The notes under the pieces: generated by a model
What the model was told of the DNA's origin: nothing
Database searches by the model: none
What the model saw: only the letters and a program-made list of their open reading frames with translations
In this document: positions 53,017 to 60,000 of the stretch, one piece after another
How the letters are laid out: the number at the start of each line of letters is the position of its first letter
Numbering within the stretch: the stretch's first letter is position 1
Translations under genes and position numbers: made by a program
NCBI RefSeq assembly: GCF_037042905.1
Contig: NC_087251.1
Span: 19,098,001 to 19,158,000, forward strand
Source: Lytechinus pictus
Lineage: Eukaryota
Direction of reading: 5' to 3'
DNA length: 60,000 bases

Positions 53017-53482
53017 GTTCCTTCATTACAGCCTGGAGATACTTTAAATACATCTACAGTACAAGAAACATCACCCCAGAATCTAACAACCACATCAGTA
53101 GCCACAACGACAACGTTGAATGTAACATCAACTGAGCCACCTACAACGACAGCATTTGCAGAAACAATAATACCATCTGAAACAGCAACTGCACCATCTA
53201 CATCAACGACCACACCAGTGCAATCATCAACGATGCCAACAACACTTAAAACCACATTGCCAACATCTACCGCTACATCACATCCAACTACAAGTACATC
53301 AAGTTCTACCACGCCCCAAACTTCAACAGTTATTAAAACGTCAACAATGCAGTCAATTATTCCAGTGCACGAAGCAACATTACCAGTAACTACTACACCT
53401 AGAGGGAGTACAACAACACAAGGAGCTCCAACAACAACAAGAGAGTCAACACATATATCAGATAACCTAACAACAAAACATA
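53017..53482 (+). CDS. Thr/Ser/Pro-rich mucin-like exon (gene continues; candidate next exon starts at 59984)
   Basis: Acceptor ttttttctag; in frame with the previous exon; VPSLQPGDTLNTSTVQETSPQNLTTTSVATTTT...DNLTTKH; donor A|GTGAGT, phase 1. The acceptor t(n)acag at 59983 continues in phase as MLKATN. Confidence 0.8.
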
Positions 53483-54525
53483 GTGAGTATATATATTGAA
53501 ACTATCCAACCTACCACTCCTGACGAGATCATGTCACTTTTACGTAAACTCCCTCCCAAGTCATGTCAGTCAGATCCCATTCCCACTAAATTACTTAAGG
53601 ATTGTTCCCCTTCTGTTGCTCCAATTCTCTCTCATCTAATTAATATGAGTATAGAACAGGAATACGTTCCTCCCTCTCTGAAAGTTGCTCTCATTACCCC
53701 ACTGTTAAAAAAACCCTCTCTGGACCAAAACTCCCTCCAAAACTACCGCCCAGTTTCAAACTTACCATTTTTATTCAAGATTCTTGAAAGGATTGTGTTC
53801 TCTCAATTGTCTGAATACCTTTCGGATAATGATTTGCTCGATCCTTTCCAGTCTGGTTATAGGTCTAATCATAGTGTAGAAACACTACTTCTTGACGCGT
53901 CTAATTATATCCTACAAGGCATGGATAAAGGGAACACCACAGCTCTTTTGCTGTTAGACTTGTCCTCCGCCTTCGACACGGTAAATCACACTATCCTTTT
54001 GAACATACTTAGTTCACTCGGTGTTAAGGGTGAGGCTTACAAGTGGTTTGAGTCTTATCTCTCATTCCACTCTCAGATCGTTTGTATTAACGGTTATAAA
54101 TCTGATGCTTTGCCTCTCTCTTGTGGAGTACCTCAGGGTTCTGTGGGCGGGCCAACTCTCTTTTCGATTTATTTATCTGGATTGCGACAAGTTCTGTTGA
54201 AACACGACATAAAATACCATATTTATGCAGACGACATCCAACTCATGATTTCCTTTAATTCGGATCAACTAGCTGCAGAAAGTTCCATCCATCGTCTTGA
54301 ATGTTGCATGGTTGATGTTCACAATTGGCTGACTTATCACTCTCTTAAAGTTGAATCCAGCCAAATGTGAATTTCTTCTTTTTGGCTCCAAGGTACAGCT
54401 AAGTAAAATCCACATCGACTCAATCTCATTTTCTGGCCTCACTGTAAATTTGTCAAGTTCTTGTCGCAATCTCGGTATAGTTTTTGATTCTCACATGACA
54501 ATGTCGAATCACATATCTTTTATTT

Positions 54526-55112
54526 CGCTGATGTGGTTTACGGTACACCATGTGTAGTGTCATAGAAACAGTGGATAGAAGAAGAGAAGAAATGGATAGG
54601 CGAGAAAGTGGAGATTTGAGAGTAGAGTATTCTTTCTTGTAAGTAGTCCTGAAAAGGACTGTAAACCAGGAAAGATTGAAGAGTTGAGAACAGCTTGAGT
54701 AGTAGAGCCGATGAGGAGATGCTGGCTTGAGTAGGCGAGTAGAGATGGTGAGTAGTAGAGAGACTCGACGTTTCGGGCAGGTTGACTGTCCGTCTTCAGG
54801 AGTGAAGACGGACAGTCAACCTGCCCGAAACGTCGAGTCTCTCTACTACTCACCATCTCTACTCGCCTACTCAAGCCAGCATCTCCTCATCGGCTCTACT
54901 ACTCAAGCTGTTCTCAACTCTTCAATCTTTCCTGGTTTACAGTCCTTTTCAGGACTACTTACAAGAAAGAATACTCTACTCTCAAATCTCCACTTTCTCG
55001 CCTATCCATTTCTTCTCTTCTTCTATCCACTGTTTCTATGACACTACACATGGTGTACCGTAAACCACATCAGCGATTGTACATTCCACCATGCAAACCT
55101 TCAAACAACATC
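54526..55112. mobile_element. Penelope-like element pseudo-LTR insertion in head-to-head (hairpin) form
   Basis: 273-bp arms (54526-54798 / 54803-55075) around a GGAG loop, a 37-bp unpaired tail (55076-55112), a 12-bp TSD TATCTTTTATTT (54514-54525, 55113-55124), and a hammerhead motif at the apex. Confidence 0.82.
54763..54803 (-). ncRNA. Minimal type I hammerhead ribozyme (PLE-type)
   Basis: Minus strand reads ACUC-CUGAAGA-C-GGACAG-UCAAC-CUGCCC-GAAA-CGUC|GAGU. Stem I ACUC/GAGU; stem II GGACAG/CUGCCC with one A.C mismatch; 1-bp stem III with palindromic ACGU; predicted GUC cut between 54767 and 54766. Confidence 0.75.
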
Positions 55113-55735
55113 TATCTTTTATTTGTAGATCCGTTCGCTTCCAATTGCGAAATATTGGTTTTATTAGAAAATACTTGTCTCGACCGGCCACAGAAAAATT
55201 GGTTCACGCTTTAATTTCGTCCCGTCTCGATTTTGGAAACTCCCTTTTGTTTAATCTACCACAGAATCTGTTAGTCAAAGTTCAGAAACTTCAAAATGCT
55301 GCCACTCGAATCGTTTCTCTATCCACCAGGCGCACTCACATTACTCCTATTTTAAGATCCTTACATTGGCTCCCTGTAAAACAGCGTATTATGTTCAAGA
55401 TTTTGTTGTTAACTTTTCATTGTGTTCATGGCTCATCTCCCCAGTACCTTATTTCACTTACCAAAAGTTATACCCCTTCAAGATCCTTACGTTCCTCCTT
55501 TTCCAATTCTCTTGTTACCCCCAAAATTTCCAAAACCTGGGGTGAAAGATCATTTGTTTACTCATCCTCTAAGCTATGGAATAGCCTCCCTCAAAACATC
55601 AAACAATGCTTGACTTCTGAAACTTTTAAACATTACCTCAAAACATTTCTGTTCAATTCTTCTTAATTTCTTTTATAATTTCCTAAAAAGCGCCTTGAGC
55701 ACTCTACAGAGTGGATTTGGCGCGATATAAGTCTA

Positions 55736-55767
<32 letters not shown>

Positions 55768-57046: not shown

Positions 57047-57660
57047 TTGGTTTCTGCGCAATAACTCAAGAAATATTTAACGGATTTTAAAAAATTTTGG
57101 TGTGTAGGTAGATGACACCACTATACAGGCTAAGTTCAAATTCGGAGTCCGCAGGTTAAAGGTCACAGCTCATTAAATATGTGAGTTGGTTTCCGTGCAA
57201 TAACTCGAAAAGTATTCAATGGATTTTAAACATTTGGGGTGTGTAGGTAGATGACACCAAAACACCAAAATACAGGATAAGTTTGAATTCGAAGTCTGCA
57301 GTTCAAAGGTCACAGCTCATTAAATATGTGAGTTGGTTTCCGCGCAATAACTCGAAAAATGTTCAATGGATTTTAAATTTTCGGCATGTAGGTAGATGAC
57401 ACTAAAATAAAGGCTAAGTTCGAATTCGGAGTCCGCAGGTCAAAGGTCACAGCTCATTATAATATGCGAGTTGGTTTCCGTGCAATAACTCGAAAATTAT
57501 TCAATGGATTTTAAAAATTTGGGGTGTGTAGGTATATGACACCAAAATACAGGCCGACTTCGAATTCGGAGTCTGCAGTTCAAAGGTCACAGCTCATTGA
57601 ATATGCGAGTTGGTTTCTAACTTTAAAAATATTCAATGGATCAAAAAAAATTTTTGTGTG
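57047..57660 (+). repeat. ~139-bp tandem repeat (central repeats of the Helentron-type element; resumes at 59045-59210)
   Basis: gcaataactc recurs at ~57058, 57197, 57344, 57482; units contain aaaggtcacagctcatt. Confidence 0.85.
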
Positions 57661-57662
57661 TA

Positions 57663-59044
57663 CGTCACGTACGTGAACCGCCTATAGGATATGTATCAAC
57701 TCAGCGGAGCCAGCCATTATAAAGCCCTCTCGCATTTGAAGAGGGGATACCAAAAAATTATTTGGCGGGGGGTATCTGAATTTCAAAAAGAAAATCACAT
57801 TTTTTGGTATCCTTTCTTTAAATTGTTTTTGCTCACTCATGCGTGAATATGGAATAATCTAAGTAATATCAGATGACAAAGGAGATTCTAAGCTTTACAT
57901 TGGTAGGTCATTTGTCTATTGTATTTGTGATTAAGCTATGATAAATCGTCGCTTAATCTCGGTTTCGTTTTTTCTGGGACGCACTGTATACTGATGACGT
58001 TGGGCAAACTTAACACGATATTTCCTAAACCTTTACAATGTTATCATATTTAACTATATAATACAGTCAATGTTACACATTCTTGACCTAAGTTTGACTT
58101 TTTGTAATTCAGGAAAAAAAAATTACCGAAAATGAAATAACTTATGTGTCAGGTATATTCGGAGCATTTTTAGATATCGGTTAACTATTAATTTCACACA
58201 CTGAGTATCAAAATTAAGCACTAAAAGTGCACAGTGGTCATCGCAAGGGGAAAAAAGTACTTGGAACATACCACCCGACACCAGAATCGGACTGGATAAT
58301 CTGGACGGACAGCGAGGGCGATCAGCCCCGCCTGTGCACGCTAAAATTTATCATTCTGCGGCTCGCGTGCTAAGAATGAACTTGATTTTTCTTTTCATTA
58401 CGAAAGTCATCGTGAAAAATGTTATCCAACATGGATTGCTACACTCCTAAGATTTATTGTTTTGTATCATTTACACAACATTATGAGATGATAACCCTTC
58501 TTCGGGCGAACAATGGTATATTAGTTAGAATCTAACGATTTTCTTTTAGAAATATAAAAAAAATTAATCTGATTTCGACGGCCTGCCATTTCCTTATAAA
58601 GAATGGAGAAAATAGTCTACCAACGTTATCGGTTCGGGAAAATTATAGTAAATGTAATAAGATGTTTTTTAAAACAATAAAAAATTGTGAAGATATTGAA
58701 AATAAGGATTTTAAAATGCTATATAAAATTTACGCTATATTTTCATAAATTTTGGCACTTTGTATCACTCATCAAAATGACTGATAATTCGTAATATTAC
58801 CGACTCTTGCTGGTAAATTTGATAAAGGTTGATACTCTGATGGTCAATGTAAATGATAAACATTCATAGCCTTACTAAATTTTAGCGATTCCATAGTTTT
58901 TCGGATTTTAATATCGCAGACATTTTGGAGAGTGAGCAAGACGATGCTCACAAGCGTCGCTAACAAGATTGCTAGGCGACCTACCGCGAGAGGGCTTTTA
59001 TAATGGCCGGCTCCGCTGAGTTGAGGCGGTTCACATACGTGACG
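57663..59044. mobile_element. TA-flanked non-autonomous DNA transposon (Tc1/mariner-like) nested in the tandem array
   Basis: ~60-70-bp TIR cgtcacgtaYgtgaaccgcct..caactcagcggagcc..ccattataaa(a)gccctctcgc; TA on both sides (57661-57662, 59045-59046). Confidence 0.75.
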
Positions 59045-60000
59045 TAGATGACACCAAAATACAGGCTAAGTTCTAATTCGGAGTCCGCAGGTCAATGGTC
59101 ACAGCTCATTAAATATGAGCTAGGTAGATTACACCAAAATACAGGCTAAGTTCGTATTCAGAGTCCGCAGGTCAAAGGTCAGAAGCTCATTATATGCGAG
59201 TTGGTTCAAAGGTCTAAATATGTTTCATTATATATATGCCTATTACATGTAGTTTCTGCACGATATTAAGTTCAATCATATTGAATGAATTTCTGATCAC
59301 GTTAAGCAGGGGCATCTGTGTCCTTTGGACACATCAAATTTCTAGTTTATTTCTCTTGTGATAATTACTGTATCAGCTGTATGTCTGTTTTTTTATGTTG
59401 GTTCAACCATATTAAAGTAAAAGATGTATAATATCAAATAGTCAACACTTGTTCATCTACATGTAGGTCTACATCTAATGTAGGCCTATATGTACATTGA
59501 ATTTAAACTTTAAAGTGATGCAGGCAAGGTTGCTGTGGTGCCCATTCCATTTGTTTGAGGGGGAACACTGCTAAAAAGTGTACATTCAGAAACTGTCAGA
59601 GAGGACAAACTACTGGTTTTAATACCACCTGTGATCATTGCTTGCTCCCCTTAACCCATTGTGAAAAGCCTATTTGATACTAGTGCATACAGCTTTCATA
59701 CATGTACATGTATGAGAGACGTACTGTACGTACAGTAACACAATTTTGATCTTGGCAACTTCTGAAAAATCTGAATATCATATCAAGGAATTTGATTCTA
59801 CATTTAGGAAAATAATCTGGATCCACATAAAGAGATCTTGAAACAAGAGATCTAGACAGATAGAGAAGGGGCAGGATGTGGGGTAGAAAGAGGGGTGGGG
59901 AGAGAGAAGGGGTGTAGGGAGAGAGAAGGGGTGTAGGGGAGGAGTTGGGGGAGAACGGGTTATTCCTTTTTTTTTTTTTACAGTGCTAAAAGCTACAAAT

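Follow-up and report, generated by a model that had tools for sequence, protein, structure and literature searches.

The palindromic insert at positions 54514-55124 of the window (the whole stretch of 60,000 nucleotides of Lytechinus pictus DNA analyzed here, contig NC_087251.1) is a 5'-truncated, head-to-head product of an autonomous Penelope-like element (PLE) of the Penelope/Poseidon type, which encodes a reverse transcriptase (RT) and a GIY-YIG endonuclease, and it was dead on arrival. Taken as a whole, the observations are probably best explained by the insert being a by-product of this autonomous element that arose through two internal primings of reverse transcription, with the two cDNAs joined at the 5' end of the RNA. 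Inserts of this family have three fixed landmarks, namely a tail that ends at +21, an inverted arm that ends at about -14 and a 5' boundary at about -293 (element positions are numbered from the ATG of the open reading frame (ORF), with a natural copy as the reference).

The insert interrupts a 5'-truncated LINE with a (TTA)n 3' end (53492..55762, plus strand; RVT_1, E 3.7e-33), which we take to be an L2, the label also given in an earlier note made from this sequence. On both sides it is flanked by a 12-bp target-site duplication (TSD; 54514..54525 and 55113..55124, plus strand) that is present as a single copy in the paralogous, empty L2 sites. The left TSD is followed by the inverted arm (54526..54798, minus strand), which corresponds to the 5' UTR of the PLE from -288 to -16/-15 and the outer end of which matches a second, upstream RT start. 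Next comes the loop GGAG (54799..54802, minus strand; -292 to -289), which is sense-continuous with the inverted arm, is the native upstream sequence in read-through copies and is joined to the other arm via microhomology of up to 3 nt. The forward arm (54803..55075, plus strand; -288 to -16) leads into a tail of 37 nt (55076..55112, plus strand; -15 to +21) that ends at the main RT start. The arms (54526-54798 and 54803-55075) are exact complements of 273 bp each, or 274 bp if the final T of the TSD is counted. The earlier note had described a perfect palindrome with 273-bp arms, a 4-nt loop, a 37-nt tail and a 12-bp TSD, all of which is borne out; its statement that the insert has no coding capacity is not entirely accurate, given that the PLE ORF begins in the tail, which holds its ATG at 55091 and its seven initial codons (55091-55112).

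Deletion of 54526-55124 yields the local L2 frame SNHISFICRSVRF, and in all five paralogous L2 copies fetched, the target is present once and lacks the insert (one is exact and four have one base different). Thus, the proposal that removal of the insert restores the L2 frame holds locally, with empty paralogous sites in 5/5 cases, but no intact L2 ORF results because the host carries a separate +1 frameshift near 54350, upstream of the insertion. The forward arm and tail show a single mismatch in 311 nt compared with two other copies, so that the insert is young, as had been claimed; the paralogs of the host LINE are up to 99% identical and, accordingly, this family is young too. Elsewhere in the window, the region 53017-53482 is a probable exon coding for a Thr/Ser-rich, mucin-like stretch, with its splice donor about 10 bases ahead of the LINE; the palindrome would therefore be intronic, giving the pre-mRNA a perfect duplex of 273 bp. 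The window also contains a degenerate array of 137-147 bp repeats (57047-57665 and 59044-59218, with related copies 1.5 kb apart) and a pair of 28-bp inverted repeats (57696-57723 and 58997-59024), possibly a DNA transposon.

Hundreds of related copies are present in the genome from which the window comes (812 Mb, 368 contigs). A family search that returned 1258 candidates gave 56 matches from the 40 that were scored, and the tail motif has 262 exact matches genome-wide; subsequent duplication of entire loci has inflated some of the family counts. Some copies extend past the tail into the RT ORF and others extend upstream into the end of the GIY-YIG domain; both Pfam domains, RVT_1 and GIY-YIG, were found on contiguous copies, with the parent ORF pieced together from several of these. 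The arms of the insert represent the 5' UTR of this parent and the tail represents its ORF start. The arm sequence and the pLTR of copies that carry the ORF are 99-100% identical, and characteristic traits of EN+ PLEs, that is, a pLTR running into the ORF start, a tail and an inverted, 5'-truncated copy, are all present. By the motifs recognized by eye on the translations and the definitions available in PMC8557442, the parent is likely to belong to the EN+ PLEs of the Penelope/Poseidon clade. The PLE origin with an inverted pLTR and a tail that the earlier note had proposed is thus confirmed by copies with RT and GIY-YIG that share the arm and the tail. Its expectation for a genome-wide survey was realized with respect to the hundreds of copies, their common tail end and the adjoining RT/GIY-YIG, but not with respect to the apexes, which vary.

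Several other loci add to the picture of the family. One of these (L009, 1-1639) is an almost perfect palindrome over at least 1.6 kb, and its apex, at -959/-978, falls within the part that codes for the endonuclease. Three loci (L076-L078) represent a sister family of PLEs. Its copies have a minimal hammerhead of their own, in which stem I is weak, share the tail geometry around the ATG and contain an ORF encoding RT and GIY-YIG; the 5' boundary in this family seems to lie further upstream. A variant from the sister family that was initially guessed to be a palindromic apex turned out to be native sequence. In the RNA runs X21-X23 mapped on L019 (position 1536), many reads retain the hammerhead and diverge immediately after it, apparently representing another subfamily with a different 5' UTR.

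For the counts at the level of junctions, 30 of the 262 tail-motif copies were used, namely the first 30 in genome order, for which the 5' end was not a selection criterion (L046 and L047 share flanks). The tail stops at +20/+21 in 29 of these 30 copies; 18 of the 30 have an adjacent inverted arm, the outer end of which is at -10 to -15 in 17 cases. A TSD was found at 42 of the 60 loci with both ends available, with a mode of 12-13 bp including end microhomology. As for the 5' boundary, a probe for -288..-263 has 518 matches genome-wide compared with 56 for -320..-295 and 0 for the controls. Among the 48 arm ends of the 30 tail-sampled loci, 20 are within -285 to -297 and only 3 are beyond; put differently, 23 arm ends extend as far as -285, and 20 of these go no further than -297. 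Solo copies flanked by a TSD start at the -293 boundary as well, which makes this boundary independent of inversion. Stem I of the hammerhead begins with the base at -293, 37 nt upstream of the predicted cut. The 5' fragment of the hammerhead (-293..-257) and the tail (-15..+21) are both 37 nt long, probably by coincidence.

The same positions recur in four raw RNA runs, presumably of this species according to their label, with 635-2148 matching reads each. In all four, loose read ends pile up at -293 and at +21/+22, and in the raw Illumina reads, joints between opposite strands have their start at -293 to -281; because these read ends and joints repeat it, the genomic 5' pattern holds outside the assembly. 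Between 57 and 75% of the matching reads run on into unlike sequence and mostly come from passenger copies; in these four runs, there is no pile of molecule starts or ends at -293 or at -256. One of the runs contains a minor joint of the kind that goes back on itself.

The minus strand of the inverted arm carries a complete minimal type I hammerhead (54763..54803), as identified by inspection, with a predicted cut between 54767 and 54766. It consists of a 4-bp stem I, CUGAAGA, an extra C, a 6-bp stem II with one A-C mismatch, GAAAC and GUC; the pair that is mismatched in the subfamily of the insert is A-U in another subfamily. The cleavage triplet obeys the NUH rule. In three loci (L081, L086 and L089), GUA replaces GUC, which would still fit this rule. 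The core (CUGANGA / GAAA / NUH), the short helix I and the long helix II with an unpaired 5' base are those of the minimal type I hammerheads of PLEs, and a palindromic remnant of helix III is present too. The forward arm contains the same hammerhead without C3 and the 5' strand of stem I, and the predicted cut position would fall before 54835. Both assertions of the earlier note on these structures are supported, namely that the minus arm holds a complete minimal hammerhead, with the features described in PMC4209133, and that the plus arm starts inside the ribozyme, without C3 and the 5' strand of stem I; the inversion point is at the 5' edge of the ribozyme. The proposed check against Rfam models came out negative: no hammerhead in Rfam 15 matched this minimal form without helix III at E<=10, the only matches being miRNA-like hairpins below their gathering scores. 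The monomer fold is no more stable than those of shuffled sequences (z 0.23). Self-cleavage after GUC is a prediction, and genomic 5' ends are in excess at the predicted bond.

The simplest reading of the -293 boundary is that it is the 5' end of the RNA; that it is the transcription start as well is, in our estimate, evenly balanced. An initiator-like motif is centered on -293 and a TATA-like motif is found 32 nt upstream, as judged by what we take to be the respective consensus sequences. The sister family has the same spacing of TATA and initiator and yet lacks a step at the hammerhead edge (43 outside, with a control of 9, vs 47 inside, with a control of 2) as well as apexes at this edge (0), so that the motif argument is uncorroborated. 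A test for a cap-derived G (G 20, A/T 16, C 154) is confounded because the opposite arm ends with GGAG and snap-back inserts also supply G. Priming at the ORF start of the mRNA would yield stubs of the observed kind because the PLE protein needs ORF sequence downstream of the start (PMC11167929), and the read-through copies, about 11% (56 of 518), would stem from priming at a downstream pLTR. In Drosophila, Penelope has an internal promoter (PMC2377424). A stall of reverse transcription at an RNA structure upstream of -293 was considered as the cause of the boundary and rejected, as there is no strong hairpin just upstream of this position.

A different reading, plausible although we rate it well short of even, is that, instead of a transcription start, -293 marks a site where reverse transcription stops or where the RNA was processed, for instance, at a protein-bound hammerhead or a branch point. 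The absence of a step at the equivalent initiator of the sister family, the lack of a start pile in the RNA reads and the spread of the ends over -285 to -297 are all compatible with such an origin, and the bases at -293 fit what we assume to be a branch-point-like motif. Yet the sequence upstream has no stable structure, the read-through fraction is as expected for downstream pLTR priming, and no intron-type joint in the PLE 5' region is among the 15 joints listed of 79 in the RNA runs, which have little depth from source elements. Furthermore, TATA and TCACT are also found in a rotifer pLTR, the inverted copy of which is 37 bp shorter (PMC3846280).

For the origin of the palindrome, we infer the following course of cutting, priming and joining. 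The protein of the element would cleave the two strands of the target at sites about 12 bp apart, and two cDNAs would be primed inside the RNA, one at +21 and the other at about -14, with the interval between the two becoming the tail. With priming at the ORF start of a transcript that has its 5' end at -293, only about 310 nt of the 5' UTR would be copied. Both cDNAs would run through the uncut hammerhead and end at or near the 5' end of the RNA, where their 3' ends would be joined via microhomology of 1-3 nt, at this locus probably by a snap-back of the -14 cDNA. We regard two primings with snap-back joining as the likely scenario. The antisense strand that bears the loop bases is the plus strand, which is attached to the left flank at about -15; because of this attachment, the loop-bearing cDNA must have been primed without the tail, and the tail therefore needs a second priming on the other strand. 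The apex, which the earlier note had placed near the ribozyme-defined end of the RNA, is actually located 32-37 nt upstream of the scissile bond, so that the cDNA of this insert ran through an uncut hammerhead, and the insert belongs to the uncut class.

The earlier note favored a single fold-back, in which one cDNA is primed at the tail, folds back and copies its own strand to about 35 nt before its start, and self-priming has been suggested for such palindromes (PMC3846280). Fold-back also predicts that the two arms share a haplotype, as observed in 30 of 32 pairs that are concordant at all scored diagnostic sites, and is in line with apexes that are often near-symmetric, even the long one at -959/-978 in L009, and with the short, templated snap-back inserts that are common at the junctions (L068, L073 and L053). 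Nevertheless, we consider this mechanism unlikely to have acted alone: the loop at this locus is on the strand primed without the tail, and of the 32 two-armed loci, 13 have an inverted arm that extends further upstream than the tailed one, in 6 cases by more than 25 nt (in L031, the forward arm starts at -256). In several loci, the inverted arm holds up to about 250 nt that are missing from the tailed arm (L033, L038 and L039). Moreover, the fixed end at -14 fits the second RT start of PMC11167929. Recombination between the arms could flip the loop or swap the seemingly longer arm, but a single fold-back would require such later inversion to be frequent. No locus with arms of different subfamilies was detected among the 32 two-armed loci, which does not discriminate between the models. 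All in all, fold-back probably contributes at the junction, after two primings. Six loci (L048, L062, L065, L070, L074 and L075) contain short sense segments, from about -293 to -250/-258, beside the apex; these represent snap-back synthesis that halts near the cut site and could reflect a released 5' fragment.

The assembly contains 68 head-to-head apexes at this edge compared with 0 in a reversed-pattern control, and among the first 50 of these 68, 19 are identical to the apex of this locus. Such identity speaks for a palindromic, retrozyme-like family that is non-autonomous and is copied in trans as one unit, an idea raised in the earlier note. At least two of the loci, L065 and L067, are one old palindromic stub that was duplicated with about 2 kb of flank, probably inside another repeat, and the 19 identical apexes were accordingly no longer taken as a sign of recurrence; the remaining 31 are different from this one. 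An autonomous element has this sequence as its 5' UTR and ORF start, with the near-identity to the pLTR of ORF-bearing copies described above, and the 75 loci mapped, some of them repeats of one place, include no head-to-tail monomer array. The retrozyme-like reading is therefore largely refuted and very improbable. An even smaller, practically negligible probability applies to a fold-back chimera created in assembly. The arms are indeed perfect, and the read evidence pertains to the edge shared by the family rather than to this exact locus; however, the 12-bp TSD is clean and is matched by empty paralogous sites. With 68 apexes against none in the control, and with raw reads that contain opposite-strand joints at this very edge, the palindrome is neither a chance feature nor an artefact.

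A minor class of copies starts at the predicted cut. When copies are counted in which a non-native base directly precedes a chosen position, 17 are obtained at -256, the first base after GUC, compared with 3, 5, 0, 1 and 3 at -254, -255, -257, -258 and -259, respectively. Inspection of the flanks resolves the 17 hits into 12 junctions, 4 point mutants of an intact ribozyme and 1 complex case; for 12 junctions, P is ~6e-5, and for 6 only, it is ~0.04, with control hits that still include mutants. The 8 hits in one of the position counts all have T rather than C at -257, and 5 of these 8 form one cluster. The class amounts to about 5% of the 272 arms that hold the downstream probe, and this minority of templates would have been cut by the hammerhead beforehand. 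We give somewhat better than even credence to this origin of the -256 copies, and the class may be genomic evidence of cleavage in vivo. An appreciable possibility, rated slightly below even, is microhomology-guided joining or deletion at the GAG-T-CTC micro-palindrome, with no ribozyme cleavage: 6 of the 12 true junctions overlap the GAG microhomology of the opposite arm, beside this 7-nt micro-palindrome, and according to the available text of PMC11167929, no RNA reads end at the cut site and cleavage is dispensable. This explanation does not readily account for L090 and L093, which join unrelated DNA at exactly -256, for L083, in which a single base separates two arms that each end at -256, for L096, in which the arms end at -256/-255 with a short spacer, or for the absence of any hit with C17 as the first base.

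Much of the anatomy of the insert, namely the inverted pLTR, the tail, the TSD and the opposite-strand hammerhead pairs, is already published. The EN+ PLEs of the Penelope/Poseidon group (PMC8557442, PMC3846280) share with the parent element a single ORF with RT plus GIY-YIG at the C terminus as well as a pLTR running into the ORF start, and share with the insert a head-to-head inverted copy, a one-sided tail of 30-40 bp (37 nt here), a short TSD and a palindrome at the junction. In the insert, by contrast, just the 5' UTR is left, and neither the boundary at stem I nor the minor peak at the scissile bond is described in the accessible parts of the two reports; formation of the inverted pLTR is called undefined in PMC8557442. 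The Poseidon element of Anolis carolinensis, PAc, has been shown in vitro to have two internal RT starts flanking the tail, which is explained as the interval between them; both target strands are cut and extended, and uncut RNA is the main template (PMC11167929). The RT starts of PAc are located 111-118 nt into the ORF and its hammerhead is over the start codon, whereas in the L. pictus family, the RT starts lie on either side of the ATG, with the hammerhead 256 nt upstream. The available text of PMC11167929 does not deal with 5' junctions. The hammerhead resembles the minimal metazoan PLE hammerheads of PMC4209133 in its 4-bp helix I, the long helix II preceded by an unpaired base, the G10.1-C11.1 pair and the palindromic remnant of helix III; opposite-strand pairs of such hammerheads 100-700 bp apart have been described in the same paper. 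The section of that paper available to us states that there is no evidence of cleavage in vivo, which the -256 class may provide. In animals, non-LTR retrozymes (bioRxiv 10.64898/2026.07.22.740005) also combine a type I hammerhead with sequence related to a PLE pLTR, but consist of head-to-tail tandem monomers in contrast to the head-to-head arrangement of the insert, which, unlike a retrozyme, carries the PLE tail and a TSD and is itself rebuilt at each insertion. No prior report of the 5'-end pattern was found in the literature searched, which excluded most subscription papers, and supplementary figure S2 of PMC11167929 may show the boundary.

The locus itself is ordinary PLE debris, and it is the family that provides a base-level map of the starts and ends of PLE reverse transcription in vivo. 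The role of the minimal hammerhead in vivo is a question raised in PMC4209133 and PMC11167929, and the boundary at stem I together with the peak at the scissile bond make both this role and the origin of the palindromes testable. If the RNA end at -293 is capped, cleavage by the hammerhead would decap the mRNA; in other systems, self-cleavage can promote cap-independent translation (PMC13725137), which is a lead only. As a tentative and rather doubtful synthesis, a capped PLE mRNA might start on the first base of the hammerhead, and the ribozyme might act as a self-decapping switch that removes a 37-nt leader. The hundreds of stubs would then record uncut RNA (-293) in the large majority and cut RNA (-256) in about 5%, such that a metazoan minimal hammerhead would cleave in vivo, and the palindromes would be pairs of independently primed cDNAs joined at the RNA 5' end. 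The family-wide map of 5' ends is a testable lead on two points of PLE biology rather than a demonstration.
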